A stretch of 61,931 nt of DNA, filler included, from Hausera hauseri (taxonomy: Eukaryota): NCBI GenBank assembly GCA_046269625.1. It is 10 parts of 10 records of this genome, joined end to end, with 100 filler letters (N's around TTAATTAATTAA, not from the genome) between each part and the next. Parts side by side here need not be neighbours in the genome. Positions count along the whole stretch, not along the records: positions 1 to 4,528 come from JBJURY010540675.1; 9 more parts are not named here. One strand, given 5' to 3'. Numbering within the stretch: the stretch's first letter is position 1; every line of letters begins with the position of its first letter. The notes beneath the pieces are model-generated. The model made no database searches and was not told the DNA's origin. It saw only the letters and a program-made list of their open reading frames with translations. The translations under genes were made by a program, and so were the position numbers. Positions 1-35,930 of this stretch are shown here, one piece after another.

Positions 1-2
1 TT

Positions 3-248
3 AAAGGAGGGGGATGTGAGGAGGAATTTAAACGAATATTAATGTTTAAATTCAATTCAAAGTCAATTCAATAAATAACCAATATAAAGTCGAGAAATTC
101 AAAAAAAGGGATGAAAATAAGACTCATTTAATTAGTAAACGAGATAATTGTTATACCAACTTTTATAATAAATTTCTAATGCATAATTCAATCTTACAAT
201 CATTGAATGTCGTTGAGGTCGGAATAGTAAATACGCGATTTTCTAACA
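3..248 (+). mobile_element. Polypurine tract (3-14) plus 3' LTR (15-248, TGT...ACA) of a Ty3/Gypsy element, abutting the pol 5' region of an oppositely oriented element
   Basis: AAAGGAGGGGGA directly followed by TGTGAGGAGG...TTCTAACA; aligns over its whole length with 14144-14384, which follows an integrase C-terminus. Confidence 0.85.
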
Positions 249-1010
249 CTGCCGATGTCATTATCATTTAAAGCTATAATATCTCGATATTTGCGGAATA
301 ATTGCAGTAATTTTTTCAATTCAAATGGGGTTAAATCACCGACTTTAAATTTGATATTTTCATTTTCTACTAAGAATGTTGCTGCGCATAACTTAACTGG
401 TTGTAATTTTCCTAAATTGAGGTTTTGCCATAGTTTGATTGTCTTTTATTAATATTTTCTATTGGTAATTCTAAACTTTGTACTCCTTTTGATACGAATA
501 AGGGATATTATAAAATCTTATATTTTTCATTGTTATATAAGTTCGGTTCAAACACACAAGATTGCTCATGATATTGCGGCTGTATTCTTAACATCACCAT
601 CACTTGTTGTTGTTGTTTTATGATAACATCATGAGTTAGAGTCATACTGATATCCTCAATTGGCAAGTTGTTTAGTGTGTATCTAAGAATCTTGGTTGAT
701 AAATCTATTGAGAGTCCTAAAATATGTGACAGTACATCCATTCCTATCATCAGAGGTACTGGCAGTATTTTATTGTCTGCCACAAATAAAGTGATGGTGT
801 TTAAATTACCATCAATTTTTATTTTGATATATATTTTTCCTAGAAATTGTACTTGAGTGGAATTTGCTGCTTCTATTACTATATTACTCGGCATGATTAC
901 TCCTTTTTGATCGTCCGTTAGGTACGAATGTCGAATCATTGACACTTATGCGCCTGTATCTATTAGTGCATAATATTTAATCCATTAAATCGTACACGGA
1001 TATAGGGGTT
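249..1010 (-). pseudogene. Retroviral-type aspartic protease and pre-RT spacer of an env-bearing Gypsy element
   Basis: PYIRVRFNG..(frameshift)..YALIDTGA*VSMI at ~940-1010; IEAANSTQVQFLG and LMIGMDVL in ORF 508-945; LLQLFRKYRDIIALNDNDIG pre-RT motif cut by the LTR at 248. Confidence 0.85.
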
Positions 1011-1429
1011 ATTTCCCGTTGTAATGATGGTTTGGGTCATAAAAATGAATTTTGTATTATTCCTTCGGGCATCCGTGGTATTATATTGTCGAAGTACGTT
1101 TGGTGTGTATGTTGTACTTGATAAGCAGGTGCATTCACCCAAAGCTCTGGCCATAGAAAGATTGTTTATGGATGTGACCTTCATTTCTCTATTATCAGGG
1201 TATTCCAGGAATTCATCAATAGGTTCGGGTTTATACTATGTTGGTGTTTCTGGCTTGGAGTGTTGTCGAGCTTTCTTCCTCAATAATTTATATTTAACCA
1301 GGTATTCTTCTGCTGTTAATTTAATAAAGGCTAGTAACTGTTGCTCCAATTCTGGGGCTAGATGCGGTTCTTTTCTTAATTTATCAAGTTCCTTCGCATG
1401 CCAATACATCAATACTGATGTATAATTTG

Positions 1430-3232
1430 CAGCATAATTTGCCATGTACAACCACGTACTTTCTTTATATTTCTTGCAGCTCCTATTTGTCTTAAAATGA
1501 CCATTATTGTGGTAATTATAACATATATTCCGAAAACTCCTGATATAACTTGGCCAAAAATAAGGAATTTATTTTACAAATTATAAAGGACCTTTTTATT
1601 TGTTCTTTCTAAATGATCAATTGGCAATAACATTCCATAATTAGGTATACCATCTGATCCTTTCGTAACAGTATATACAAATTCCGTGATGACTTTTTCT
1701 AGGATATTCTGAAATAACACTTGATTTCTTACCGCTTCCAGGTCTGTCAAGGAAGTTCTCTATTTACTTTAAACTTCATCCCTTTATCCAATGGTAATAG
1801 TCCAATAGTCTGAGGTATGTTCATCACTGTTGGTTGGCGTGTTTTAGTGCATCTTCCATCGTTAAGTTTGAAGGCTGGATAAAAGTCTTTATAACATGGC
1901 GCAAAGCTGATTTCAGTAGGTAACAATAAATCTCGAGTAATAGGGTCCACATATCCCATTTTAATTATGTTTTTGTCGTTGTATTGGACCATTAATTCGT
2001 TCGTGCAATTTGCTTTCGGAGATGTTACTGGCGTTACCTTTTTCGGTGGGCATTGGTATACATGGTGTATTTCACATTGTACTCTACCAAATGTTCCAGG
2101 GCGATATCCCATAATTAAGGCAATATATTCGGGGAACTCTCTAACTAGTACCACGTCGTTTTGGTTCAATTTTTGAGTGATTTTACAATCTCTCAGTACC
2201 ATCATATTATAAAATTTAACTAAATTCATTTTTGATGTTTGATAGATATAGTCTATCTTATTATTCGTATATAGGTACCACTATATATCTTCAGTTGGCA
2301 AATTTTCTGTATTTGCCAGAGTTACCTTTGTTACGAATAGATCTTCATAAGATGCCAAATAAACTGCATTCGATCCACAAGTTGATACTGCTCTTTTACG
2401 TGCCAGTACGATTCCGTCTTTGCCACTGGATGACATTAAAACTTTTAGGGAAATGATCTGTCTTAAGGTTCGTGGGGTAGGCAAACTTACATTATAGTTA
2501 TGTTCAGTTTCTTGATATTCGTCGTCATAATATAAATCACCTTGTATTTTGTACATAGATACCTGTTTAAGGAAGGCTAATGGACATATTATGACCGTTT
2601 TTTTCCAAATTAGGGTGGATTCTCCTAAGGTATATACTCCACTAGAATATGTACAGGATGGTGCGGTGAACATTTTTCCTGTTATTGAGTAGAAATTTAC
2701 TTTATATTACTTTATGGTGACGGTATAATCTTCTATTTGTACTACAGCGGATATTTTTTTGTCCACTTATCATCATACTTTCTCCTTTACAGGCTCCGCC
2801 ACATCCAGACCATATTTTTCCGGCTGTAACTATACGTGAATACACTCGTTTTCCTATGCCTGCCTGTAGTGGCTGTTGAAGGCCTACATGAATTGAGTCT
2901 GTGGATTTTCTACAATTTTCGGCTGTTATTGTCACGGGTTTAGGAAGTCCTGATGGAATAATTACTGAGTTCCACAAATTATGACCGCAGTTATAGGCGA
3001 ATATAACTTTATTAACTTGACATTCCTTTACTTGAACTTGTTGATAACTGATTCTTTGATACAAGTTATAATTGTAAGGACCTTCCTTCTTTACTGATAT
3101 CGGATTTGCGTTCTGACATTTGCTGGCTGTTATTTCTGGTTTGGAGCAATCATAAGCTTCTAACGCTTTCGTAGTATTTAGGCTACTAACGGCTATTAAA
3201 TATAATAATAGATGAATAATTTGTACAACCCA
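1430..3232 (-). pseudogene. env: Envelope glycoprotein, chuvirus/herpes gB-like class III fusion type, frameshifted
   Basis: Hydrophobic leader then LEAYDC, ECQVNKVIFAYNCG, GACKG, GTFGRVQCEIHHVYQC, CTNELMV..GYVDPITR, and a C-terminal TM (KFLIF/GQVISGVFGIYVIITTIMVIL) near 1500-1580; collinear with 4629-6429. Confidence 0.8.
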
Positions 3233-3280
3233 ATCTGATACGTTGGTATCTTTGGGGTATATTAACGTAGTGGGGTTAAC

Positions 3281-3646
3281 TTTCTTGAGGATTTCGTCCC
3301 AACCACCTTGTTTGGTTACCCAATCTCTCGTTAGCTTATCCATATGATGGGCTGGGTCCCTTATTATATGGTGTAACTTGGTGTCGACTTCCGTCTGGTT
3401 TTTGAAGCTGACCACTAATCCTAATGCCATCAACAACCAATTTAGGTCACATTCCTTTAACAATCGTATCAATGCTTTATTTAAACCTCCTTTCGGTTTA
3501 TATTTCTGTAATCTCGTAAATTGCGATGAGAAATTTGTAGCAGTTTCTATTATGGACTGCAATGAAATTGTGGAAATTGTTGGTATCTTTTTGAGTTGAT
3601 TTGATTTAGCTTTCTTGATTAATTGTTCCAAAAGTTCATGAGTCGT
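3281..3646 (-). CDS. Bcl-2-family-like domain inside ORF 2702-3859, in frame with the env leader
   Basis: BH2-like DWVTKQGGWDEI (3290-3325), BH1-like LLKECDLNWLLMAL (NW at 3437-3442, canonical GR missing), BH1-BH2 spacing of ~40 aa, followed by a hydrophobic tail. Confidence 0.7.
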
Positions 3647-3859
3647 CAGTGTTACTTTTGGTATATTTATTTCGCTCTGATTTGATATTCCAAGAGCAGG
3701 ATTTTGTGTTTGTTCATTCTCGTAATCAATAATGGTAAATTGTTGGAAATTATCGTATAATATATATTCTAATGTTATCCATTGTTCCTTACGTTTTCGT
3801 GACAAGGATCTTTTTTCTTTGCCTTTCCAGCTTTTCTTCGGGATTTTCTTCATCATCAA

Positions 3860-4528
3860 TTATTGGGTTAAAATCGCATTTTCGTGGTCTTCCTCCCTTT
3901 TTCTTAGTGCCAAATTCCATGATAATCTGATGAATCCTTCCGGTACGGAGTCCATAATCTACAACATAATCATTGTCAACGGCTAAACTGCCATAAACAT
4001 CAGTTTAGCTATTATATTAATTTCTAAATCTAATTCAACTAATACCTTAATTCGAAGATCTGTGAATTTAGTGAACATTCCTGCTGTTACTTCGATTATT
4101 TGTTCCCACTTATTTATTTTGATCTCTATATTTATAATATATGGTTGTTTTCGGCTGTTTTCGTCTTAGGTCTCTTCCTAGAGATTTTAGTAACTTTCGT
4201 GCAGCTGAAAAGAAGAATACATCATCTTTTGTTAGTGGCAATAGTAATGACGCACATTCTATTCGATTAGTTAATGGTAGTGACTCATATTGTTTTAAGG
4301 CACTCCATACTTCATTAGGCGCTGAATCAGCGATTTGTAATTTAGCTTTAATTATTTCAGTTACTGATTCTGGAGGTTCGCCGTATACTATAAAACCTGG
4401 TGGTATATTCACCTACGGCATATTTTTTGGGTTCTCCATTGGCAATAGTGTAGTTTCAGGATACTGGATCAAATCCAGTGCAAGTATCAGTTCATCGTTT
4501 TCTAAGATTTCGAACACTTCGTCTTCAT
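3860..4528 (-). pseudogene. Unknown upstream part of the same polyprotein
   Basis: ORF 4110-4412 and the 3860-4109 interval, which reads in the frame of ORF 2702-3859 apart from three TAG/TAA stops. Confidence 0.5.
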
Positions 4529-4628
4529 NNNNNNNNNNNNNNNNNNNNNNNNNNNNNNNNNNNNNNNNNNNNTTAATTAATTAANNNNNNNNNNNNNNNN
4601 NNNNNNNNNNNNNNNNNNNNNNNNNNNN
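4529..4628. other. Artificial contig-joining spacer N44-TTAATTAATTAA-N44 (also at 9601-9700, 13744-13843, 29836-29935, 34845-34944, 39115-39214, 43805-43904, 53159-53258, 57398-57497)
   Basis: Identical 100-nt spacer occurs nine times; TTAATTAATTAA gives stops in all six frames. Confidence 0.98.
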
Positions 4629-9700: not shown

Positions 9701-12285
9701 AAACTGTTACTCAGTATTCGTATGCCTTATCGGAGCTAGTAAAATATTATGCTAATACTGTTAAGACTCAGATCTTAATTAGAAAATCCAATGCAAAGGA
9801 AGACGAATAAAAGTTGAAACAGACATTCACTTATTCACCCAATTGTTAAAGGTGTCAAAAAAACATTAAAACAGATTTAAAAAAAAAATGTTTAATATTC
9901 AACGAGGTAATACGAGGCACAGAACTTCGAAGCTCATGTGAGCTCCTACAGAGACGAACGATCATCAAAATCTAATCAGAAGTTTACCCCAACGTATTAC
10001 TGAAACTTTCTAACGATTATAATATCAAACAGTCATATAATAAATATGTAAGCACAAAGTTCCAGATCTTATGCACATNNNNNNNNNNCAGTGTTAAAGT
10101 TTGCATTGCCTGGGGTATCTGAGTACCCCTAACAGAGTTTAACCGTTAATAATCAACAATATCAAATTAAACCCCAGCAAAATCAAAATAATTATAACGA
10201 TTTGAATGCTTCGTACCAAAAGGGTAATAATTCTGGTAAAAAACCATAAAAATAGTAATAGCCCATCTAATCAATATCAGCAAAAAGGTCAGGATATTAA
10301 CAGAAATGGTACACCCATAGTCTGTAAAAAGTGCGAACTAACAAGCTATAACTCCATAAATTGTATGACATCTGTAGACCAACTTGCAAGCATAAAACAA
10401 GAAAAAAGTGTGAATTTATCATACATTCATGAAACTTTAGATGTAAAGCTAAAATTAGACAGATTACCACAAATAGTAAAAGAATAATTCATTAACCAAG
10501 CTGTTAACGAAAGCAGAGAAGTGGATGACATGTTAAAAAGATATACCGGAAAATATGAACCCCGTGCATCATCTATGATAGAAGACGATTATATTGATGA
10601 GTTCGTTACAAATAGTATAATGTTAACAACGAGAAAAAGAGCATTAGATAAGATAATGAAAAGAATACCATTAACACCATCCGAGGATCTGCTACTTAAA
10701 GCAATGTCCATTGGATCAGAATCAAAATGGGATAGTTATGGTAATTATGAAACTAATGTTTATGAAAATAATCTGACTAATTTATTATCCCCACCTTCAC
10801 AATTCGATGAAAATTGTAAGGAAAAAGAAGAGCCAGATAAAGAACCAATAGCAGTCATAGATTTAGATAAATCCACGGATGAAGAATCTGAAAAATAACC
10901 TCATATTGATGAAGAATCGGATAAATCTATCCGGATAACGAAAGTAGAAATCATACGTAAACTAATGGATGTAACAGACATAACTGATCCTATTAAACCA
11001 ATAGTAGTAAATAAACCAAGTCCTCAAAAGGTAACGAAATCCGATAGTGAAAAATTTCTAACTTCGGTTCACCAAAAGAAAGCCAAAAAGATAAGTAAAG
11101 TAAAACAACTATTACTTACCGAAGCGGATAGAGAAGGAAAATATATAGCCCAAAATATCAAACAAGATACTAAAAATATCCTAACTGACGAAATACCTTC
11201 TTACGCTAAGGATTTACTTGAAATTAGCTAGTTGTAATGTCTGAACAATTAAATGATCCAAAAGCATTAAAACAATCGGAAGTCTTTAAAAACTTATTAA
11301 CAGCATTAAACCAAGTTCATAAGAAGCGATATAAGCAACAATGTTTGAACATAGAAAATATCATTGATGAAATCTTAGGAAGAACTAAAAAGATAGATGA
11401 AGAACAAATCAACAAGAATCCAGTTGACATAATAAATCTAACTGTACATTCCCCAGAGATTCAATTAGATATAAACCAAATTTTAAGCAAAGCTAAAAAT
11501 ATAGACATGAAAAAAATGACAAATGTCGAACAATTACAAAATCTTTTGTAAGTATTAGAAAATTATCTGAAACGAAAAGGAAAAATACCTTTTCTAGAAC
11601 GAAAAAACATACAAAGTGTAATAAGAGGTCTCTAAAAAAATTATAGATTTCCAACTCAAGAATCAATCTGTAGTAGAGATTTACTTCGATATATACAAAA
11701 TAATTCAAATGAAACTCTCTAGACAAGAAAAAATGAGATGGACAGAGCGAAAAAATCAAGTTGCTCAAACCATGGAATTCCCAAAATAAGTAAAATAAGT
11801 TTAAAGATACTTTCTCTGAAATGGATCGAGCTAAGATCGATTCTATTGAAAATTTTCTAGACAAAATTGATGATACTCTTAAACTAATGGCTGAAGTCGA
11901 AAAGCTGAAAGAAAAACTTGAAAGTAAAATCTTAAGGCAAATTGATAAAATCAAGGTTAATAAGCATTTGAAAACTTTAAATAATTTGAAACCCTTCTTC
12001 ACTGAACTTGATAAGAATAAACTTAAGAAAATAGAAGAATGGTATAAAGATGCTACCACAGACCAGTATGCATCACAAGAAAATCTTGGCGATATAGATG
12101 ATATTGATCGAGAAGAACTTGATAATATAGAAGAAATAAATAATGACGACGATCTCGAGTTAGCTGAAAGAGATGTCGAAGAGACTCTACAACAGTATGA
12201 AGAAATCTGTAACGAACCCTTACCTGCTCAAATAATTCGAGATGAATATTTAATAAATAAACTAAAATCAGATATAACTATATAA
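9701..12285 (+). pseudogene. gag: Gag C-terminal part with decayed zinc knuckle, followed by a long charged/coiled-coil extension
   Basis: TVTQYSYALSELVK capsid-like motif at the contig start; CKKCELTSYNSINC (10323-10364, CX2CX4[H>Y]X4C); consecutive same-strand K/E/D/N-rich ORFs to 12285. Confidence 0.6.
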
Positions 12286-13843: not shown

Positions 13844-14384
13844 AACAACAGGGAAGAACCCAGCAGAAATAATATTTTGAAGAACAATACATAGAGAGAG
13901 ATGACATGGACAGAAGAAAACAATAGAATCAACGAGGAGCAACGACCCAGAATGGATACCAGCAAAATGGGTATTCCAGGTCGGAGAAAGCGTATTAATA
14001 TAGAGAAAATCAGGAGCAAAAGATAAAGACAAATATGAAAGGCCGTACGAAGTCATCGAGAGAAAACATGACCGATGATATGTACTGCAACACGCGGACG
14101 GCAGAACCCTGGAAAGAAATGTGGAAAAACGGCCAAAATTCTTAAAGGAAGGGGATATGAGGAGGAATTGAAACGGATATTAACGTTTAAATTTAATTAA
14201 AAGATAATTCAATAAACAGCTAACAGAAAGTCAGGAAATTCAGAAAAGGAAAATAAGCCTCATTTCCCGAGTGAAGGAGATAAGTGTTATATAAACTTTT
14301 ATAATAAATCTCTTATGGATAATTCTATCTTACAATCATCGAGTGATGTTGAGGTCGGCACGGTAGAGACACGATCTACTAACA
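13844..14384 (+). mobile_element. 3' end of a Gypsy element: integrase GPY/F tail, PPT (14144-14155) and 3' LTR (14156-14384)
   Basis: FQVGESVLI*RKSGAKDKDKYERPYEVIERKHDR*Y..RNVEK, then AAAGGAAGGGGA and an LTR homologous to 15-248 ending CTAACA. Confidence 0.85.
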
Positions 14385-14447: not shown

Positions 14448-17400
14448 TTATTTCAACCTCCAATGACCATACGCCCAACCCTTATTTTGCCCAACCCACT
14501 TTCGCTTATCATCGTTAAATAACAGAGAATTTCGCACTAGTTATTGTATACAGCTGGTGTTAAATTGGTCGGTTGATCGTTTGAGACACAACAGCCACTG
14601 ATTTTCCTCCTGTTGTTGCTGTTTCATACGGCGATAATCACCGTGGTCAATTTCCGTCTGTCTCAACTGGACTCCTTTTACTCGAATTTTCGGTCCACAG
14701 TCCGTCAGAAGACTGTAGTACTTTGGGCGTAGGAATATCCATTCCCGGTACCGGACATGACCTTCACTTTCATCCTTAAAGCAGCCGGTTTTATTGGTGA
14801 TCGCGCTGCTGTACAACGGATGATCCGCTGAGTAGTTTGATATGTCCAGTAATCCATCTGACTGCATTTGCTACAGTAGCTGTTCGTGATTGACGTTTTT
14901 CAGACGCAGGAAAAAACTGTATCACCGGCAATTATGTCAATATTGCAGCTGTCAAACATTTGCCGGTAACGTGCCAAATCCCGATACTGCAGCTCATACA
15001 CCCGTAACTTGCTCAGGTCCAATACCACTTATCCGATGTAACTTGACCGGTGCAGAACGACGTCTTCCATGTTTAACAGCACTTCAACCAATCCATCGGC
15101 AATGTGCATTGACCGCCGAAACTGTGCCTTGCTGGTATATGTAACCAGCCGCTTTTCCGAGTTACATAGGCGCACATTGAACCGCTTTTTCGGATTCTCC
15201 ACTGCTTTTCCGTACAGAGAATTGTTTTGCCGATTGTAGTAGTCCTTTTCGAACTTTGTACAAGCTGCGGCTCGTTTCTCCGAATTTCCATCTATGTACG
15301 CCTTGAATATGCGCGCCTGAGCAAATCGGATTGCACTATGCAGCTGCGTGACGCGTACAACGAGCTGCATGTAGAACTGTAGCAGACGCCAATGGACCAC
15401 GTAATTCAGCTTTGATTCATGCGACATGAGCAGTTTCTTCACTTTTGAGCCTGGCGGACATTGGTTAAATGGTGCGACCGTAAATTGTCTAAAACGTCAT
15501 GCAGCTCATCTGGTATCTCGAGATCGACCTCCATCAGGTATCCGACTGAGACTGTCATGTCTGCTCATGGTAGGTTTGTCATTATGTCATCCAGATCTTG
15601 CTGTCGACTACCCATTCAAGTGAACCGTACGGCAAGGGTTGCGAAAGCGCCCAGCCGTACAGGTTATTAATATCAATGTGCAGCAGTGATGTGATATCGG
15701 TACCACTGACCTGATGCTTGTTGACAAATGTCATGCCAACATCAAACATTCGGTACATTTCCGGGTCTTGCAGCAGCTCAATGTCTTGATCCAGTGACAT
15801 CAGAGCTGACGCCCAACTCATTCTCGGTATGGAATAAAAGTTGAGTGGCTCAAACCTATCATTCGCCAGCACTTTGGTCCAAAATGCTTCGAACACGTCG
15901 GATAATAAATACACGCCCAGTGTGAGGTACTGGACATGTAATCTAACATGTTTCTACAGCCCAGTTCTATCCAAGATTCTTATGCTCTCCGATATTCATC
16001 TTCTGCGATACCTGTCCATCGCGGCAGTAATTCCTCTGTTATCCAGAGTCGCTCATATGATGTTGCAAAGTCATATGGAAATATGCATTTGCTGTGTGCA
16101 ATATGTGTGGGGAACTACGTTGAGGTTACTCGCACATCCGGCAAGGCATTTGCCAGCTTCGCCAGTGATTCATTGAGAAATTGCAATGAATCAAGGAAGC
16201 GTACCTGGAACCGGTTTATGCGTGCTAACAGGGACAAGTATTTCTCCATTGTTGTTGGGATTATGGACAGTTCCCAGTTCGGAAATCCGTTGATAGCCCA
16301 TTTGAGTATATGGTGACAATCATAACCTCCGGAAATTATGAAAGACCACCCGAAGGAATGGTCGCACTCGCCCTGCTAAATTGCATGAATTTCATATTGC
16401 TCCCAAGTATTGATCGGCGCAATCGTCGTGATCCGGCACGAGCCGTTCCTGTGCATCAAACGGTATTATTTTGTGGCACAGATAGCATTCATCGGTAAGA
16501 GCGAAAAGCAACGGTTGATATTTGTCTGCCAAAATCAATGGCTTATTCCAATTGTTGTGATACCACGGCGCGATTTCCGTTTCCACTATGGTTTCCAACT
16601 GTTGCAGGAAATCACGTACACGTTTCCAACCATTGAAAACGTAATACTGTGGTTTTCCGGCGGCTTTTATTGGAACAACCAACCTACCGACGGCGATTGG
16701 AATGTGCTTTTCATCGTATACGTTGGGCCGCGATAGGATTGACTCGATATCAGCATATACCGCATATGCCGAACTGTCTGTTTTTGGCCAGTCACTGAAT
16801 CTCAGCTTCTTTTTGACTGGCATGACGTACATTGTTGTCCTTGATGAATTTTGTCTGCACAGCGCCACATATTTTTCCCCATGTCGTTTTTGACCTGAAA
16901 CCTTGCAGACATGTAGGGCACCATTTACAATTTATACACTTTTTGATGAATTGGTGGTGATCATTATTCAGCAGTCTGTCCAAATTGGTTACTGCCACAT
17001 AGTGAAATTTATCTGCTTGCCGCAACAGCAACAAATTTACCGAGCGCCCATTCGGGTTCCGACTGCGATAAATTATATCCATGCGTGGGTTTTTGTATAT
17101 CTCTTTGTTTGCTGGTATTTCTACGATTATGTTGTACCGGAACACGTTGATTGCCAGTATCGGATTACGCCGTTTTGAGTTTTATCTGCATCCAACACTC
17201 GCCGTAGTCCAATTCTGAGAAATGCTTACTGCTATGCTTGGGACAATTTGCATGATGTCCGGACACTTGATCATATTTCAATATAGCCAGAATGCTGTAA
17301 ATAAAGCAGTATTTGTCGTTAGTATTTTGTACATTCACTACTGCCAGAGACTGCTTCAAGAATGCAGGTGTCGGTATGAATTAACGTCCAGACAGGTAAA

Positions 17401-18259
17401 TCATGTCACTCGTCTTGGTCAGAATAAAGCCGAAAGTGACAATCTTTACAATTCGCCAACCACTGCCCTTTTCGGTGTAGTTGGAGATTTTTTCATCAAG
17501 CTTTTCGCTTACATCGGCAATAAAATTCTCAAAGTATGATACGGCTCGATGTGACAGGTACCATTGTTTCCTGTCACCCTGCAGATTTTCAAATTTTGCA
17601 AGTGCATAATATTGCACTTTGCAGTGGTGTTTTTGTTGGAATTAGGACACCTCTGATTCCAACCTATTACGCACATTAGCGGCTACATCCTTCAATTGCG
17701 TTGCTGTTTTCGCCGACATGTCCACATTCATATCCACGTACGATCTGTTCAGGTCGTACTTGACAGTAATGAGCGATTTACGTTCCTGCTGCTGCTGCTG
17801 CTGCTGCTGCTATTTCTGAATTCTGTTATTTTGAAAGTATTCGTCAAGGCTTGCTGATGCTTGACGTTTCTTGTTGATTCTTGCTGCATCCATTAATACT
17901 TCCTTTTTGGACCTCTGAAACTGGTTCAAGTGGTCCTTGTGAATGTTGTAGAATTGTTCATAGTTGGTTTCATCAACTATAGAACAACCGGGACAAACGT
18001 AGGCCCGTTTACCGTGCACCGTTGTGGCGCCATAGTACTGCTCCATTACACCATGGCAACTATCAGCGTCATGCATTCTACTACTACTATAGTATCGCGG
18101 GTATGTAGGACAATACACAATCATCATCTTCTTGGACCGCGTGAACGGACCGAGATGATGCTTGTGCATCTCATAAAAGTCGGTGTACGGGCATGTGTTT
18201 TGAATATAAAACACGGGACACAGGTACGTGTCCTTGGCCACTGAATAATATTTGGCCAT
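14448..18259 (-). pseudogene. polB: Polinton/Maverick-type protein-primed DNA polymerase B with N-terminal zinc fingers and an EndoVII-like insert
   Basis: NVQNTNDKYCFIYSILA, HYVAVTNLDRLL, VYADIES, DINNLYGWALSQPLPYG, NNSLYGKAVEN, decayed AGDT[DS], GCFKDE, LRPKYYS, C-terminal DDKR..AYGH ending at 14448. Confidence 0.92.
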
Positions 18260-18910
18260 TTCCTTGTGGCATTACCCACCCTCATGTATGCGGGAGAGTC
18301 AATACATGGAATATTGCAAACATTTCTGAATGATAAACAAATTAAAGTAAATGTTAAACTAAGAACAAATAAAAATGTATTAATTATAAATAAATAAATT
18401 TAATTACAATACACCATAATTTATTCCCCTTACTGCAGTCTCAGGCGTAGCTTAAATCGGCTATAAACGTTCATCAACATTACTACTACTACTCTAAATC
18501 AAATGGAAGAGTATAATGAAAGTGAAATTCAGAGATTGACCGATGTCATTTTGACCGGATATGTGTTTGATGTAAAGTTTTTGTGAGCTTACAGAAACGA
18601 GAATAATTAGCAGGCGAAAGTATATTGAATTGATAGTCAAATCTATCTTCGTAAAACGTATCGGGGATGAAATGAAACGAGAACGACAACAACAATGACG
18701 TATTAATTTCCTCATTGGAATTGTATTTTCTGCTTCGCTTTGTATTGTAATGAAAAAGTTGACTGACCGTATTTAATTACAAATATGTATTATTTTGCTA
18801 TGTTTGATTTTGTGAATCAATATAATTTATTTCACGTCTTTATTGTTGTTGTTGTTGTTGTTACATTTCAATATAAATACTTGCGCTTCTTTATGGTATC
18901 ATATTACTAC

Positions 18911-21887: not shown

Positions 21888-22512
21888 TTAGCATTTTATG
21901 GGGAATGAATTGTCTGATATTGCAGCAAAGTCAGTGTCGGATTTCTGTACAGAATGATCGTAGTGACTTGTGTTGTTGTTGTTTTCACTTTCGGTATTTA
22001 AGATTTCGAGAGACTGATTCGTAGAAATGGGTGAGGAGAAGGTATTTTGCATTTCGCTTGTTGTATCGATGGTTAGGTTTTTGTTGTTTTCGGTGCCTGT
22101 TCTTTTCGGCCTTGGACGATAACGGTAATCAGGATGTTCTTCCATATGCTGTTTACTGAGTCGTGATTGTTCTTCATAATGCAGCCGTTTTTCTACCGTC
22201 GACATAGATTTCCATTTTTTTGCCTTCAGAAATTTTACTTCTCTTCTCACGAGACCAGACCATAAATGCATTCATTGGTCGTTTGTCGTGATTTTCGCGA
22301 ATCCGTCCATTCATTTCACCTGGTCTGTTTGTTCTAATTATGCGTGTATTGAGTAGAGACAATGGTTCAGATTTCAATGATTTATTAACAGATACGTCTA
22401 GCGACATCGCATTTTCTCGATCATTGGACTTCATTGAGCAATTCGAATTGGTCGTTTGTGGAGTCGCATTGCGGATAACGTAATTCGGCACTGACAAACC
22501 CGGTCCAGTCAT
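21888..22512 (-). pseudogene. SoxD: SoxD (Sox5/6-like) HMG-box fragment with internal deletion and frameshift
   Basis: [20 protein letters not shown] and [40 protein letters not shown]; the PDMHNSNISKILG segment is absent. Confidence 0.9.
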
Positions 22513-23169
22513 ATTTGGCAGAATCGAATTAAATGTTTAGATTGATTCCGGAAATTGCATTATTATTGTTGGTGTTTTGAGCGAACTGCTGATACCAGAG
22601 ATAGAACTGAGTAAGAATTTCTGGATTGAAATGACTACTGGACATTATCTTATTCAAGACGCAACGATTTTCTGTTCGTGTTTGATGGTAGGTTTTTTTT
22701 GTCAATTTTGTCTTTATTGATTATTAAAACAATCATAATAAATACATTTAGTCAAAAAGCTATATAATAGCTTAATAACCGTTGTACGAAGAGCGGTAAA
22801 CAAACTGCGTTCGGGAGCGTGCATTATAAAACATCTGAGGTGTACGATATGAGAAATATAAATTTATGAATGCTAAAGAAAATAGTTTGAATCAATATGA
22901 TTGTCAACTAAGAGCAACCACTAATGACCATGTACTTGATTTCAGTGATGGTAAGGCACCAGTTGATGTTTCCCTTGATGGTCCACGATAATTATTCATC
23001 AGCGGTTCTGATTCTGAAAATGTTTGTCGTGAACTGATAGAACCGGTGTTCTTTATGAATTTTTGATTTGTCACCATATTGGAATATTCAAACTATTCTT
23101 ATTTGAGGATACTGTTCTTGGAATTTACAGTTGGTGTCAGCCGGTATTTATGACGTTTATCTTTACTTT

Positions 23170-24330
23170 GGACGTTTATGCACAACATCAAGCATTGCGA
23201 TCAAAAGATGATTTGATTGAAATCATCCACTTGATCTGAATGCCTTGAAGGAATTGTTGTCGAAGAAATTTACATTTTTGCTGAAAAAGGACAAAATGTC
23301 TGGTGCCAGTGTTTGCATTTTCACGGCACAATGTCATTTTCCAACAGTAAGCAGTCACCAGAATGTGCTGAAAGCACTGATGTTTCAGTTGGATGCTGCT
23401 TTGTCAACAACTGCAGCACAAAAAAAACGGACTGCTATTTCTTTACAACATGACGGAATCGTTGTATTCAAATCTTGACGTTCAGCCGAATTTTAAAATT
23501 CTCAATTTGCTTAAGGGAGCTTATTCGGCAAAACTAACTAAAGTAATTATTTATACACCACCACTGTGGTTTCGTGCATCTTTCAATCTTCGACTTTTTG
23601 TCAAGGAAAAGTTGCAAAATCGAATTTTTATCGTAACATCAATGGATTCATTACATCAGCATGTGACAAAAGATATTTTGCCTCCGAATCTTGGCGGTAG
23701 CAATAACCACTGCCATAGTCAGTGGCAAAGAAAGGCATTCTTATTGATGGGATATTATGAATCGATGCATCCTTCCGCACTTTACGGTCATCAGACTAAT
23801 GGACTTTCACAGCCGCTCAAAACTCTACCGAAAATCAATAACGTTACCGGCAATAATTCATTCGTTGGTACGAATCGTAACTGTGGTGCGTTGAAATCTG
23901 AAGAAGACGATACAAGTGATTGGGATTTTACAACTGTCAACGGGAGTTTGACTGACACTTCATCAAAAACGAAGGAATTGTCTCCTCAGTCCAATTGTAG
24001 TGCTGTGCCTGCATTCGGCCGGAATCAAGTCAAAAATCACATCGACATCCGGAATCGTTAGTTTGGATCAGAACATGTGTCCAGCAACTTACGAGATCGA
24101 TCCACCAAACCTAGCAAATAACATCGGTATTGATTTGTATCCGTCAGTCGATATTTCATTGCACAATGATCAAAACAACAATTCAGCAAATGAAAACAGT
24201 GACTGTGATATGCTTTCGATCAGTAGTTGGGAGTTAAATTTGGAACAAAGTGGTGATAAAGATAATGAAGATGACTGTCAGATTATAAAAACAATGGAGG
24301 CACCGAAATATCACGATAATATATTCCACC
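23170..24330 (+). pseudogene. PTPN9: PTPN9 (PTP-MEG2)-like N-terminal Sec14/CRAL-TRIO domain and linker; phosphatase domain absent
   Basis: ELLSKKFTFL, LKALMFQLDAAL, QKNGLLFLYNM, KILNLLKGAYSAKLTKVIIYTPPLWFRA, LFVKEKLQNRI, LPPNLGG; frameshift in an A-run at ~23420. Confidence 0.85.
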
Positions 24331-24334
24331 TTCT

Positions 24335-26760
24335 CAATCGATCTCAGTTTTCCAAGTCAAGTGAAGTCAGTCAGAAATCCGAAGTTCGGACGTTATCGGC
24401 TGTTACGTCAGTTTCTTTGCAATCCGGATGCAAAACATTGGTAAATCATCGAAAATCGCTGTATTGCTCAAAAAATGTACCGAGGAAAACACGAAATGCG
24501 TTTTGCAAAATAATCAAAAATATAAGTTGTCACAACATGGATTAGTGAAAAGCATGCAAATTGCAAAAATAACGCGATTCGTTCTGCGTCAAATTAAAAC
24601 TGAAGCAATTCAAGACGAAGTTGCAGCACCAACGGAAGAGAATCTCAAAGAATTTTTACCGAAAAATCTTACATATAAAGTCTTTCAAAGCTCTAAACGC
24701 AAAGTGGGCCCGGTTAAATCTAAAAAGTTGTTGAATTGCTTACGTCAGATGCTTCTAAACGATTCAAAGTAGTCAAATATTTTGCATTGATCTGCAAATC
24801 TGCAGACAAACCCGGTCCGGTTGAATTCATGAAAATTTGGCAATTGTGCGTAATATTAGAAGAATGCGTCTTTCGGAACTGTAATCATACAATTAACGAT
24901 GTTTACATGTCTCGGATAAAAGAACTGTCAGATTTCTTCAAAAAACAAGTTGACAATCAATTATCATTTAACTTCTTTCAACAGAAAATTCTGCCATCAA
25001 ATGTAGCGGTAATGTCCAAAAAGGATTTAAAAAAAATTACTGCAGTTCGGCTTCACCGATTAACGACGTTTCACCTAACAATTCGGAGACAAAATTGTAA
25101 CAGCTTTGTCTAAAAAGGGAATATTTAATGTATTACGAGACACAACATATCTTCACTGACAGCATTTGTATGATATCAGCTGTAAAATATGTAACCTTGG
25201 TTCCAAAATGACATCAACTGATAAAAATGGCTGCCTTTAATTAAAAGAAATTGGCAACAACAGTAGTCAGACAAGCGACGAATTCAATGTCAGCAGTTCG
25301 GTTAAAACTCCTGATATGTCTGTCGATATGAATATCTGCTCAACACCATCAGGTGACGGTACGAATAAACAGGATTCATGTGAACCGGTTAATGTTACAA
25401 ACAATATCGTTGATTCATCTGTGTCTGCTTTACTAAATTCTGGTGTTCCAACAAAGACCAAAAAGAAGATGACATCCATCTGGGAAGGTGATATAAATGA
25501 TGAGGACATAGGAACAGTAAAGTGCAAGTAATATCTCATTTCACTAGTGTTACTTGGTGAGTCTGGGGACGAATCGAATGCCATGGTAGAAGATGGAGAT
25601 GAATTACGGGACTCAATAAATCTCAAGTATAATTTGATGGACAAAATCACAATATTTGGACGCATCAAGTTACCCGTTGTTCAAGATTATTTGACAAAAC
25701 TGAAAAAGCGTATCAATAAAGAAATTATTTTGCGACTTCATCCGTCAGATTTGAAAGGTCGCACGATGTATCTTTTGTTATTCCAGTATCTTTACACTCA
25801 TGACAGATGTGGTGTTGTAAATGAGAAAAAGATGGGCCTTAAAGATTGTTACATTTATCCTCTTAATGCTCCCTCTTCAATACATCCGCTTTTCTTACCT
25901 TTTGTAGGTCCAGGATTAGAGAGGCGTAGGCCGCATTTATTACTCCTTATTATCATTCGAACGCCATTGGATAGGCTCAACTATTTGCCAATATCACCAA
26001 AATACGACCAGAATCATGAGATAGCAAGTAAACACGGAATCAATTTAGAGAAAACTGTACACTTCGCTTTGTCAAGCGGCAAAGATTCTGATAATAATAA
26101 TGTTAAACGTCCAGAAGTTATTCTTGATCAGGTATTCAATTGTTCCAATAAGTTGAAAGAAGTTAAAATTCAAAGAGAATGTCATGATACTGATAGGGAA
26201 TTAGTAGAATTTGAATTCTTGGAACAAACTGCTAACGTTTAAATTAGTAGTACTGCTAGTTCAATTGCTTTGTTCGACGAAGAAACGTTAAGAGAAAAGT
26301 ACCAAAAAATAAAAAGTATGCCTCTACCTGAAACATTCTTATAAAAGAAATATTCGGATTCCATAATCAACAAACGTGAAGTTTCAAAATTTATTACAAC
26401 GGGAAGTAATGTGTTTATTCACGTAAATTCTTTGTGCAATGAGGAAGCATTTGAATTATCAAATGAACAAGATGAGGAAGAAAATAATGATGATGATGAT
26501 GATTACGATGAAGCTGTTGATGCAAATGTGAGCAGTTTGTCAACAAGACTTAGTGAATATTACGAAGACTCATTATCGATTGACCATAACTCAGAGTAAT
26601 TCCAAGAGCTCGATTTTACCACGGAAAATATCTAAAGAAAATAGTCGGCAGGAAACACAGAATTCTTGTAACAGTGGTGACGAAGTCATTGATTGGCCCA
26701 ATGAGAGTCCGTTTGAACTGAATAGAACCACAGTAAAAGATATGTGGACGTTTAATAACG
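24335..26760 (+). pseudogene. PHF3: PHF3/DIDO1-like fragment (TFIIS-M and SPOC domains)
   Basis: TFIIS-M-like LEECVFRNCNHTINDVYMSRIK; DTTYLH*QHLYDISCKIC at ~25140 (cf. DTTSQHRAHLFDLNCKIC); SPOC IWEGDI..ITIFGRI..YLYTHDRCGVV..KDCYIYPL..PFVGPGLE..PHLLL. Confidence 0.85.
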
Positions 26761-26785
26761 ATGAGTAAACATTTAAATTAAACTC

Positions 26786-27782
26786 ATGCAAATCTGCGAA
26801 GAGTCCAGCGAGGCACTCAACATATTTCCATTACCATCAGGCTTATGCAGAAATGCTAGTCTATACGGATACTTAATTCCTGTCGAACATGTTTTGGGGA
26901 AAAGTGTTATTGCAGTGGATGAGACAACCACTCATGGACGCAAATGCTATAAACCAACGATTAGACATGGTTGAATTTTTGGTATCGGATAACAGTGTGC
27001 GACTTAATCTTTATGATAACCATTTAAGGAGAATTCTCGACTTGCAAAGAATAATTAAACATCTGAATAGAAAAGACGCAACGTTGCAGGATCTATTCAA
27101 ATTATATTTGTCTTTGAAACAGATCAACGAGATATATCATTTACTGGATGGACATCAAGGCCAATATAAGCATGTTATTGAATCTGAATTTTCAGCCACG
27201 AAGGAACTTTGAGAATCAACAGATAATTTCGTTTCTATGATTGAATCAACTATAGATTTTGATGCCATAAAGGGAAATATGGAATATAGAATAAAGGCAG
27301 ATATTGATGAAAATCTTCACGAACGTAGCTCACAAATTTCCGTTTTGACTGTACAATTGGAAAAGGAATTTTTCAAAGTTGCCAGACAAATCGGCATTGA
27401 ACCGAAAAAGCAAGTTAAATTGGAATCATCGAAAAATTTGGTTATTACATGAGAGTTCCGCGCAAAGATGAAACAATTTTGCGAGATCAAAAAAATCTCA
27501 ATGTTATCGAAACACTAAAGGATGATGTGAAGTTCCATTCTCAAAAAATGGCAAATCTGAATGAAACGTATTTGAAATACTTGTCAGATTATGGTGAATA
27601 TCAAAAGAGTATTGTTGATCAGATAATGCGTATTTCAAACGAATATTCTGCTTCCATATACAGAGTAAGCTTATTGATTGCCAAATTGGACGTGTTTTGC
27701 AGCCTTGTAGTTTCTGCTTTATCTGCTCCAGATACCTATGTGCGACCGTCCGTTAAAGCTGACGAACCCCGATTCATTAAAC
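26786..27782 (+). pseudogene. MSH2: MSH2 central fragment (core/clamp domains), ATPase domain missing
   Basis: ALNIF..SLYG..LNSCRT..QWMRQPLMD..INQRLDMVE, LQDLFKLY, MIESTID, VKLES, AKLDV..APDTYVRP; several frameshifts and stops. Confidence 0.92.
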
Positions 27783-29835
27783 GTTTCAGTCAGTATGTTA
27801 TCTACAAAACACCTCGCAGTAAAACAGGTAAGAATTCGGTTACCCCGAAATCTGGACCCGCAGTGGCAAAGCTGAGGTCCCGGCCGCCCACTGCACCATT
27901 GGGTTGGATGGCACCGTTCATTGCCGCCCCACAACACGCCCCCGGACATATCACCTCCCTATTCCATCTTTTTTTAAATAACAAATATATTCATACATAC
28001 ACAGCATTATATTTACACACTTCGGCCATTCACAACTTCATCTCTACCTTACTCCACTTTCCTGACTTCTACCTCACATACAATGGATCTGTAATGTCTT
28101 TCGCTAAACCCCTCCAACCTTCTACAACTTGTGTCTGTATTACATTCACTTCGGTTTCCGTGGTGGCATGGATTCATCACCCACAATTGATACCACGGAC
28201 AAACTCACCAAACCACAGATCCCTATCATACATTTACCGAAACAAAGCGCTTCAAACACTCTTACACAACACACCCTCCTCACTCATTCACCCTGCACCG
28301 AATACTTCCTCGACAACCAAAACTTTACTTAAACATGGCTAAAACTGCACCAGTTTTGGCTCCAATCACAAAATGTCGTCGACTCTTTATCCTAAGCCAA
28401 CAGCCTCTTTTTCCACTTACCAGCTTCCATCAAAACTAAAATTACCAATATCATCGATATCCTTCATCACACTGACCCATATACTCAACTTTATAATGCC
28501 ATTCTCAAGCTTACTGAGCCTTCAATCTATTCAATCATTTAAAGATTCTTCAACGATAACGCCATGGACCTTCAGAAGCCTTCTGAATTCTTACGCACAT
28601 CCTTGTCTCAACTTAATACCTCTGAGCATAGTCCAGAACTTATTCATCGTATTTCTTAAATGTATTGTCCCTTCAAGTAAGAGTTTGGCTAACCGTAGTC
28701 GAAGACTGCAAAGCTCTAGACAAGCTAGCCGAACTGGCAGACAAAGGTTACGAAGTACTGCACTCACACACAGCACAAACTATCTCTGCGGCATTAACAA
28801 CAGACCAACAACAACAAAATGCAATGCTGCAGCAACAAATTGCGCAATTATGCACGGAAAATGAAATGTTACAAAGGACAATAAACACTATAAACGAAAA
28901 ATTAAACGAATTAGCGCTGCCTCGACGAGGTTTTTCTAGGCCTGCTTCCCCTAATTTATTTAATCAACGTCAAAGACGGTCGCCTTCGGAGCGCGGTCAT
29001 TAATTGGCTATTATCATAGCAAATTTGGTAACAATGCTCAAAAATGCTGCATCGGTTGTAAAATCGGTTGTAATCTTAATCAAATAAGCAGCATTTCGGT
29101 GACTGCCCCGACGATCGCCTCCAGCAAGTCAATACTGAAAAGAAACGACTTTTGATTTAAATTATTTTTATAATCATAAATTATACAGAAATTTTTACTA
29201 CGGTGACAAATACGATATTGCCAACTGCGTGGCACCTATTACTGATACTACAGCTGTCAACACCATCTTCAACACAAACGTGCTCCATCAAATACCACCC
29301 AGTCGTAACACCTTGTCTATAACTAATACTTCAACTGCATCAAGTCACGATGCATCGACACCATCTAACAACTTTTCATCGTTGCTTTCTGATCTACAGC
29401 AATACATTTCGTCTTCCTGCACGAGTCTGTTACAGAAGGACAAATCATTCGTAGTACCTCAATCCACTTTCCATCACATAGTAACAACACATCAGAGACC
29501 AATACGTCAAAAGGTCCGTCCGATATCGCCTCGTCGCAGAGAGGCAGTGGAGGCTGAGTTTCTCAAACTGGAAAAATCAGGAATAATTAGAAGATCAAAG
29601 TCCCCGTGGTCTTCACCACTACATGTGGTTCCAAAAAAGATGGTACCTTTCGCCCATGCGGTGATTACCGCCAACTCAACACTATAACAACAATGGATGC
29701 CTACCCTCTACCATTAATCAGTGATATCCTTCAGAGGCTTCATGGTGCGACCATCTTTTCCTGCATTAATTTGCACAAAGCATACCACCAAATTCCTGTT
29801 GCCCCAGCAGACTTTCCGAAAACGGCTGTCATTAC
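27783..29835 (+). mobile_element. Ty3/Gypsy element: possible PBS (~27837), gag and start of RT; protease not visible
   Basis: Gag DPYTQLYNAILK..QKPSEFLR..LDKLAELADK; YYHSKFGNNAQKC knuckle at ~29010; SGIIRRSKSPWSSPLHVVPKK, RPCGDYRQLN, DAYPLP, KAYHQIPV. Confidence 0.9.
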
Positions 29836-32351: not shown

Positions 32352-34844
32352 TTACATTAGTGCAGCATGTCCATGAGGCAATGTACTGATTCCATCTTCA
32401 AGAATTTGCCTTTCATCATCGAACCAATCGAGGCTTTTCTTCCGCAGAGCAACCGTGGCAATCTGATGTTCCCGGGACTGGATCCTCTTCATTTCGCTGA
32501 CTATGTGAGTTTGTTCCCGCCACACTCTCTCAAAATCTGCAAAGCTTATGTCTTTAGCTAATGCGGCCTTTTGAACTCCCTGGGCTCGCTTCTTTGCCTG
32601 ACCACCTACATCAATGGCGAACATTTTTGATTTCAACGCCACGAAACGAGTGATGATCTTCCCATTCACTTCGTCTTTAAACTTCCCGAGGACCTTCTTG
32701 TTGGCGGTTGAATAATTTGGATGATCCTTCGGATAGTCCGAGGTATCCATATACTGCACCAATTTTGCAAACTTTTCAAAGATATCATCTGTGTGGATCT
32801 GGTACATGAAACTGTCCGGGTCCATGTACATTAGCTGGAGCTACTTGAATGTGGGGACCATGATGTTGTAATAAAAGTCATACATCAAGGTCTTGGATAG
32901 ATCCAATATGGACATGCCCACATATATAGGCTTGTTGAACTCAAGTGATATCTTGAGCATATGGATGCTCACCAGGTTCTCCGTGTAGATTGTGCTGCTG
33001 TGGAATTTGGACATAGCGATGAGTTTCTTTGCCCTCTTCCAGTCACATACCAGCTCGATATTTATCCGGTTGCGGATGTTCTCCATAGTTTTTCCAAAGA
33101 CCGAGTTGTTATACAACTTCAATCGGTCATTTTCAAACTCGCTTTTGGCATTGGTCCTCAACTGGGTATTAAGGTCTAGGTATGGATTCAGCCATTTGGA
33201 CTGGCTGAACTGCAGGGCCCGATGAATCTTGATGACTCGGAGTCCATTTTGGATAGCCTGTTGGAGATTTATGTAATGGGCTGCATACCTCTCCCTGTTT
33301 TCGAGGTGACAGAGCAGCTTCTTACACTTGCCATTTGGTGGCTTCTTGCTCTCCGGGAGAAAAGGCATCTGCTCATGCCTTGTGTCGATGCTATGTGGGT
33401 ATTCCACGTCCACCTCCGGAATATAGCCCGTATCTCCATTGGGATCCATACCTTCAATATCCGGGTCTTGCGGCTGCTCCATCCATTGAAAGTTATCATA
33501 GGGCAATAGGTTGCTCATTGATCATCCATACAGATTGTTGGCATACGGGTATTATATATGAGGATTCCTGAAATGTATCATAATCTGCCATGTATTTGTT
33601 GTTGGCCTCACTGTACTTGTGAATGGCCTGGCAGATTCCACCCCTGATGCTCCTGTCAATCATAAGGACCATATTGTAATCCTTCAAGATTTTGTGCATA
33701 GTTGCCCAACTCATTCCTGAACCTGTAAAGAAATGGGCTGGATCTAACTTGTGGCTCTTAAGATCACATTCGGGAAGCTTTCGAAGACATCAGTAAGCAA
33801 CAGCACATCTGTGAGGAGCTAGATATCACTGTATTCCCCTATTGTCCTGTACTGGAAGGTATTACTGTATGACAACTGACTATAGAAGTCCTTTTTGGCC
33901 GGTAATGCATCTTCATCCAGTGCTTTCAATGACGTTATATAGTCATAGGGGAACACTCCTTTCCGATTCACCAGATCAAATGTATCCGGGAAGAACCTCT
34001 TCGTCTCCTTGAGCTCATCAACCGGAAGGTTCTTCACGAGGCTGTCCAGTAACGAGTTCATGAAGCGGAAGCTTTCGATAAAGGGAAGTCTAATACGGCC
34101 CACATGCTTTGTGAAGTTGATGTACTTCTGTTCACTATTTGGAATCACATCAATGTTCCTCTCAATATTACCAAATTCTCGAACAATGAAGTGGGAGTCG
34201 TATCCACTAAGATTGTGGAATATCACGAGAACATATGTACATCTCTTGCAGCGTATGTTGCAATTGTTGCACACTGCTCCTCGGTATATTCCTGTAAAAT
34301 GGCAGTGATCCCTGACTTTGTGATTGTCCCATGTGAATGGCTTTCTGCATAAGTAGAATGTTGATGCTTTGCGCCATTCACATTTTTCTTTCTGTGACAA
34401 CACCATGTGGCGCTTATGCTTCTGCAACATGTCTTAAAGTTTTTGGGCATACTGTTCCATATACTGCTTAATGTGTGCTGCTGCATTTACAGCCCTGTAT
34501 AGATATGGCAATTTGCACCTTCTGCATCTCCTGGAACTCTTTGAATTCCAGGTAATCTTCCTTGGTGAATTCTGCTACGATGCAATAGTAGGTCTTGTGC
34601 TCCTCCAGCTTTTCTGCAGCTGTGTTTCCATTAAATTGGTAAAGCATCTTTTGCATATTTCCAGCCTTGATTTATGCTTGGATATTTGGGATCCTACGAG
34701 GCGCTCAAAATTCTTGACCCACATTAAATGCCTCTTTTCTCCATCACCCAGCAGGAGCAGATCCCTATGATCCTCCAATTTCTCCTTGCACACATGTAAG
34801 GGATAAAATTTGTCCTCCTCCAATCCGAAGATGTTGATGGAGAT
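32352..34844 (-). pseudogene. polB: Second Polinton-type protein-primed DNA polymerase B with EndoVII-like domain
   Basis: VRDHCHFTGIYRGAVCNNCN, FHNLSGYDSHF, RKGVFPYDY, IRGGICQ, KLYNNSVFGKTMENIR, KPIYVG, YMDPDS (YxDTDS), GKFKDE, TLPHGH. Confidence 0.95.
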
Positions 34845-35760: not shown

Positions 35761-35930
35761 AATCACAATCGTTGTCATAAAAATGTTATCAAATCTGTGC
35801 TGGTCATGTTGATGAAATCTGGCGTAGTGTTCTTTGTTACCTATCGGGTGAGAAACTTCGAGCTTATCGAAAACAAAATGTACATTTGTATATTATGTTT
35901 TAATTAATATTAGTTTCAATGACATAAGCA

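Follow-up and report, generated by a model that had tools for sequence, protein, structure and literature searches.

A degenerate Bcl-2-like domain before the envelope glycoprotein in a decayed, very probably Burro-like retroelement fragment of Hausera hauseri

The closest described counterparts of the locus reported here are the Burro elements of planarians. In the sections of PMC6431247 considered here, their polyproteins carry a SUMO-like motif before BCL-2 and hold the envelope glycoprotein (Env) in frame between BCL2 and the protease, the Env matches mononegavirus glycoproteins, and the BCL2-like motif is credited to Grohme et al. 2018. The protective cargo of Burro1, which protects stem cells, is an IAP region (BIR and RING), according to the part of PMC13465017 considered. 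The first-pass annotation of the present locus had mentioned anti-apoptotic cargo in an element of this kind; such cargo is indeed reported for Burro1, but it is the IAP region and not the BCL2-like one (PMC13465017, same part). A functional test of the BCL2-like domain was not found in the literature searched; Lee et al. 2026, Grohme et al. 2018 and the supplements may cover one. GAG-ENV-POL errantiviruses with an HSV/gB-type Env are also described from Platyhelminthes, Nematoda and Bryozoa in the portion considered of PMC13524379, whose main text there contains none of the terms 'Bcl', 'Burro' and 'apopto' and leaves cargo untreated, and the portion considered of PMC8532177 adds nothing further on the BCL2-like domain. 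Since planarian Burro is already described with BCL2, Env and PR in this in-frame order (PMC6431247, sections as above), the fusion as a headline, which had been put forward as potentially novel, is not new.

The window analysed here is a stretch of 61,931 nucleotides of joined contigs from the Hausera hauseri assembly GCA_046269625.1, and the element lies on its first contig (1-4528), which ends at a 100-base N/stop-linker spacer (4529-4628), with N runs at the same spacing through the window. DNA from 4629 onward was considered as neighbouring sequence and rejected, because this spacer separates joined contigs. Read along its minus strand, the contig holds in turn a helical region, a ubiquitin-like region, the Bcl-2-like domain and a hydrophobic segment, after which come Env, including its transmembrane segment, the protease and the protease-RT linker. 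The helical region (4166-4373), 5' of the ubiquitin-like region, aligns by tblastn with P0002, the closest protein, and has no Pfam match. The ubiquitin-like region (3895-4150) is split by a frameshift and corresponds to P0002 aa ~1025-1110; a ubiquitin-like profile match was obtained on P0002 aa 990-1094 (domain E 0.004) and a weak Pfam ubiquitin match in the relative P0006 (E 0.031), and neither Pfam nor the profile gave a ubiquitin match on the window pieces of 3895-4150. A GRP(R/K) motif, which we take to be AT-hook-like, lies before the Bcl-2-like domain at window ~3878-3898 (minus strand) and is also present in P0004, P0006, P0024 and P0028, where it precedes either that domain or the signal peptide.

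The Bcl-2-like helical domain itself (3275-3661; aa 67-195 of the frame described below) is degenerate and was recognised by the family profile and by the leave-out profile, with a Pfam match below the cut-off. It is followed by a hydrophobic segment with a likely signal-peptidase site (3164-3241), the former from hydropathy and the latter by eye, and by an Env glycoprotein of the chuvirus/gB type (PF24664, 1430-3163), which has been disrupted by frameshifts, by stops and by the loss of 7 codons and whose transmembrane segment is placed by hydropathy at about 1493-1549. Pfam PF24664 (Monjiviricetes_fusion) matches aa 215-361 of the frame at E 4.2e-10, with a second window match at E 1.1e-15, and the Env of P0002 at E 1.9e-63.

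Beyond Env, an aspartic protease (DTG) and the spacer after it, both broken, occupy 502-969 (minus strand), as seen in translation and in tblastn matches to P0024 (E 5e-12) and to P0041 (E 2.6e-11). Burro elements have a dUTPase-like domain between protease and RT; the spacer would suit such a domain in size and resembles that of relatives, with no Pfam match on the pieces scanned. The protease-RT linker (251-472, minus strand) matches P0024 aa 1314-1390, 5' of the P0024 RT at 1449; no LTR, gag or RT catalytic domain of the Env-bearing element was found on contig 1-4528. The linker is interrupted by a polypurine tract and TG...CA LTR of another element (1-248, plus strand), apparently nested in the opposite orientation; a second polypurine tract with a 234-base LTR copy, at 14142-14384 (plus strand), is about 80% alike and ends at the same CA.

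Other parts of the window hold further elements and gene pieces. A second decayed element of the same env-before-pol clade, on its own contig (4629-9600, plus strand), has Env (PF24664), a protease-like region, RT, RNase H and integrase; its Env is about 23% identical to that of P0002, and its contig does not extend over what precedes Env. At 10206-12282 (plus strand), a cysteine cluster is followed by broken frames rich in coiled coil, which have no significant Pfam match and may represent the Gag side of a large element. Pieces of a type B DNA polymerase and of endonuclease VII, likewise decayed, at 15032-18271 and 32355-34433 (minus strand), have a Pfam basis at 32844-34433 and were read by eye only at 15032-18271; they are presumably Polinton- or adintovirus-like. 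Frameshifted host-gene pieces at 21891-28339, seemingly intronless within 7 kb (HMG box, CRAL-TRIO, TFIIS-M/SPOC and MSH2), could be processed pseudogenes or else cargo picked up by retro-transduction. The N-terminal piece of a kinase, with a histidine tract (35928-37082, plus strand) and, as we take it, DYRK1-like, lies directly 5' of a Gypsy RT, and a decayed, seemingly intronless PARG piece lies at 50945-51403 (plus strand).

The Bcl-2-like domain and the start of Env share a stop-free frame of 385 codons (P0001, 2702-3859). This frame is uninterrupted, as the first-pass annotation had it, on the minus strand, the plus strand being closed, and the features quoted from it (LLKECDLNWLLMAL, DWVTKQGGWDEI, the hydrophobic stretch and the Env start) are all present. 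Bounded by frameshifts, it is part of a longer retroelement polyprotein and shares 67% identity over 374 columns with aa 1132-1505 of P0002, a protein of 1963 aa that aligns along window 4526-1430 (tblastn). The frame was considered as a gene of its own and rejected, because frameshifts relative to P0002 lie near both of its ends (about 3830 and about 2749) and Env continues to about 1430. Over 3097 nt there are nine breaks relative to P0002, five frameshifts and four stops, and a conserved Env motif has been lost with the 7 codons deleted where Env begins. The copy in the window is a dead, decayed retroelement fragment and does nothing itself. That the host kept the frame open as a domesticated Bcl-2-Env gene was considered, since the frame is the longest break-free stretch and its indels relative to P0002 are in frame. 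We reject this reading as highly improbable, because a break-free stretch of this length is within chance for nine breaks in 3097 nt (P = 0.205), in-frame indels also occur outside the frame, the Env motif is deleted and the BH1 basic residue is missing in the window copy alone.

The first-pass annotation had looked to sister copies for the same segment, and these do hold it. A total of 15,312 contigs of run X1, which may be the source of the window, map onto 1-4528 and cover 30 of 30 bins, including the Bcl-2-like part, so the element is a multi-copy family whose copies carry the Bcl-2-like segment. The 40 listed of 596 differences in these copies do not take in the BH1 codon. The summed depth of the first two bins is more than 4 times that of any other bin, in support of assigning 1-248 to another element.

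The Bcl-2 likeness is faint in any single sequence. Whole-ORF searches of Pfam and PDB sequences listed no Bcl-2, no homologs of frame region 60-240 were found among 388 candidates, ESM Atlas gave no usable match with either the window segment or aa 440-810 of P0006, and a JGI metagenome scan gave 82 pattern matches with none confirmed. The window segment alone matched Pfam Bcl-2 (PF00452) at E 0.14, the only family listed. A homolog search with P0002 aa 937-1456 against 1.84 billion representatives returned 47 matches, mostly on Env, and 25 of these, picked mainly for sequence before Env, were scanned with Pfam. Six of the 25 gave weak Bcl-2 matches just 5' of Env (E 7.7e-5 to 0.2); the PF00452 gathering score of 31.4 bits was reached by no member, the best relative scoring 23.6 and the window 13.1. 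Of the 22 relatives whose sequence extends 100 aa or more 5' of Env, 7 carry the segment, P0002 included, and the other 15 lack the domain.

When the eight segments were aligned, Bcl-2 was listed for all eight and no other family was common to two. The profile of this family matched Bcl-xL at E 4.7e-6, about helices 4-8, a value that is partly circular because six of the eight rows had been picked for their Bcl-2 matches; 59 of 60 among the listed matches to solved structures are Bcl-xL or Bcl-2. A leave-out control profile was therefore built from those six rows alone, excluding the window, P0002 and the hydrophobic tail. It ranked the frame first of 1127 window ORFs (E 0.0061, the next being 1.2), found P0002 at E 3.2e-7 among stored proteins, and gave the real segment 16.0 bits, the highest score in 995 reported of 1000 shuffles being 9.0 and that of the reversed segment 3.1. 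A profile search of longer proteins returned P0002 and P0007 alone among 7998 scored. The Pfam check proposed in the first-pass annotation thus failed on the whole ORF and was marginal on the segment, but the family profile did reach Bcl-xL. The domain is almost certainly of Bcl-2 ancestry, as judged from the family and not from the window sequence alone, and the Pfam, family-profile and leave-out results together support the original proposal that a Ty3/Gypsy-type element has a domain derived from Bcl-2 joined in frame to its envelope, on the N-terminal side.

Predicted structures were poor, with AlphaFold pLDDT of 38.5 and 42.3 (pTM 0.28 for the latter), a single-sequence run being among them. 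Foldseek on a low-confidence model placed Bcl-2 family members at ranks 1-6 (E 1.2-3.1, not significant) and, in BFVD, BALF1 at rank 1 (E 0.77), presumably a herpesviral Bcl-2 homolog, with no Foldseek match below E 0.77. VIA-align on a low-confidence model gave generic helical rows and no Bcl-2 chain among the 50 matches listed, which is no evidence against the fold. Chance likeness, in which an amphipathic helical linker happens to contain GGW, would fit this VIA-align outcome and the failure of single-sequence searches, but it is largely refuted and barely credible given that Bcl-2 is the sole family common to eight segments, the leave-out and shuffle controls, and the independent report of a BCL2 motif at the same position in Burro (PMC6431247, in the sections considered).

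Among the BH motifs, the BH2 motif W-x4-GGW (3299-3322, minus strand) is real as first described: its final Gly-Trp is invariant in all eight rows, it aligns with the BH2 of Bcl-xL, and the pattern W-x(3-5)-GGW occurs once in the 1127 window ORFs. The earlier BH1 assignment did not survive. The 'NW' that had been read as BH1 is out of register and was rejected, the NWGR of Bcl-xL aligning through the family profile with D-L-N-W (3437-3448, minus strand), and the missing GR, which had been attributed to a deletion or divergence, needs no two-residue deletion in that alignment. Both BH1 Trp and BH1 Gly are absent from all seven sequences that reach these columns, which makes the loss of NWG, on the aligned sequences, a family trait; of the NW and GGW conservation expected in relatives, that of the last Gly-Trp of GGW held and that of the BH1 Trp did not. 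The column of the BH1 Arg holds Arg or Lys in 6 of 6 relatives and Trp in the window, the sole exception.

In the portions considered of PMC9027176 and bioRxiv 10.64898/2026.06.23.733989, BH1 Gly and Arg are important for BH3 binding. The former reports that the BH1 basic residue pairs with the BH3 Asp and that a poxviral Bcl-2 with SPGR for NWGR does still bind Puma BH3, if about 250-fold more weakly, and the latter that Bcl-xL G138A impairs Bax binding and keeps BAD binding. A narrow, non-canonical groove is possible in the present domain, which, with the BH1 basic residue kept and the Gly absent, might bind a narrow set of host pro-death Bcl-2 proteins.

The hydrophobic stretch after the domain (aa 207-225, Kyte-Doolittle 1.75) comes after BH2 in the window; at the threshold used, it does so in all full relatives but P0007 (5 of 6). 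In most relatives, carriers and non-carriers of the Bcl-2-like domain alike, it ends about 6-10 residues 5' of the Env start, and proteins that have just a short leader before Env, among them P0005, P0031 and P0033, contain it too; by eye it is therefore likely to be the internal signal peptide of Env. The segment would send Env into the ER lumen, where signal peptidase would cut it free; the ubiquitin-like and Bcl-2-like part would then stay facing the cytosol, held in the membrane by its C-terminal end, as cellular Bcl-2 proteins are. The 'fusion' would thus be split after synthesis, and the Env transmembrane segment would return the protease and Pol to the cytosol. We predict with good confidence that the domain is cytosolic and tail-anchored by the Env signal peptide, and not displayed on the ectodomain. 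Separately, the C-terminal parts of P0024, P0026 and P0041 contain extra hydrophobic segments after integrase, which suggest a second membrane protein at the polyprotein end.

Relatives with gag-env or env-PR-RT-RH-IN in one ORF are P0004, P0006, P0012, P0024, P0026 and P0041, the last labelled as a bacterial MAG, likely through contamination. In the compact carrier P0006, the whole stretch from Gag to Env takes up about 810 aa. Pfam matches to MATH, BIR, ankyrin and SMC-like domains are absent from P0006 and from P0002, which starts after Gag, and no BIR and RING were found by Pfam on contig 1-4528, in P0002 or in P0006. By eye, P0002 aa ~350-470 and ~650-790 resemble two degenerate DEDDh (REX4/ISG20-type) exonuclease domains around a cupin-like region; whole-protein Pfam and PDB searches show nothing there. 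Three features of Burro were found in the present element: a BCL2-like domain before Env, a mononegavirus-like Env, and Env in frame between gag and pol, the last seen in Env followed by protease on one strand, in a frameshifted copy with Gag off the contig, and in the single-ORF relatives P0012, P0024, P0026 and P0041. We conclude, by comparison with published descriptions of Burro, that the polyprotein would work like that of Burro, and the element is very probably a member of a Burro-like clade.

An Env tree of 27 rows, from which P0046 was dropped as too short and 20 short-leader or fragment matches were left out, places the 7 carriers with 10 non-carriers in one moderately supported 17-row group (support 89/90), requires 4 changes for the carrier pattern and shows the window/P0002 Env as a long branch among relatives. 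This pattern bears on whether the domain is a captured passenger, functionless and decaying in all lineages. Its patchy presence (7 of 22 relatives, with 4 changes on the tree) and the very weak family scores speak for such a passenger. We nevertheless consider this improbable, because BH2 and the helix pattern survive between families that are merely 11-21% identical to the window, and because the identity of the domain to P0002 (68-74%) equals that of Env (73%). The upstream linker is 50% identical to P0002 and the 13-aa linker after the domain 92%, so conservation relative to P0002 is not confined to the domain.

The reading that we favour is that the fragment is what is left of a Burro-like Ty3/Gypsy element of gag-env-pol order, with a degenerate Bcl-2-like domain before the envelope in its polyprotein; in intact elements this domain is predicted to be cytosolic and probably to dampen host cell death. 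This anti-death role is predicted from ancestry, from conservation and from the tested IAP cargo of Burro1, and is on balance the better-supported role, though weakened by the BH1 Gly being absent from all seven sequences. The main rival to it is that the domain has Bcl-2 ancestry and is now non-apoptotic, serving either as an innate-signalling antagonist or as a scaffold, anchored in the budding membrane, that links Env with the Gag side of the polyprotein. The Bcl-2-fold poxvirus proteins A52, B14 and K7 are antagonists of the former kind. The structural Trp and Gly of BH2 are kept, none of the seven sequences retains the groove signature of BH1, no BH3 Gly-Asp pair is seen by eye, and the position before the hydrophobic segment is fixed in all carriers, all of which would suit such a role. 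We consider it unlikely, as the domain is dispensable for assembly given the 15 of 22 relatives that lack it, the BH1 basic residue that is the partner of the BH3 Asp (PMC9027176, portion considered) is kept in 6 of 6 relatives, and Burro1 has another, tested anti-death module (PMC13465017, part considered).

Returning to the anti-death role, a broader proposal can be made tentatively. The captured Bcl-2 fold may be an old, working part of a wide gag-env-pol clade, including compact elements and perhaps non-planarian hosts, that uses the Env signal peptide as its own tail anchor, such that a single cut would release both the fusion protein and a death blocker bound to the membrane, whose groove would differ from that of any described Bcl-2. 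If true, a reverse-transcribing element would here encode a working mimic of Bcl-2, and if the domain blocks death, elements of this kind would possess two independent anti-apoptotic modules (IAP and Bcl-2), as in large DNA viruses.

Compared with cellular Bcl-2 family members (Bcl-xL, PF00452) and the viral mimics KsBcl-2 and ORFV125 (PMC9027176, portion considered), the domain shares the helix 4-8 core by profile, BH2, a putative C-terminal hydrophobic anchor and, in relatives, a basic residue in the BH1 Arg column; unlike them, it has no NWGR, falls below the Pfam cut-off, is part of a polyprotein and shares its anchor with the Env signal peptide. The element resembles the GAG-ENV-POL errantiviruses of PMC13524379 in having a chuvirus-like Env before pol, and six Schmidtea Env domains in the part of its supplement considered resemble the window relatives by eye. 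The B-IAP of Burro1 (Lee et al. 2026, as reported in the part of PMC13465017 considered) is likewise anti-death cargo in a Burro-type element, BIR and RING acting there on caspase-mediated apoptosis. With the planarian giant Ty3/Gypsy elements Burro1-4/GYPSM1 the present element shares the in-frame order of BCL2-like domain, Env and protease, preceded by a putative ubiquitin/SUMO-like region; those elements span 25-30 kb with MATH, BIR and ankyrin, whereas the present one is known from a 4.5-kb contig. Present results add to these systems seven further database proteins with the domain, in families that outside the nearest one are 11-21% identical, a set that shows what stays (BH2, the BH1 basic residue) and what goes (the BH1 Trp and Gly), together with a compact carrier, P0006, in which no BIR or MATH cargo was detected, and a predicted topology.
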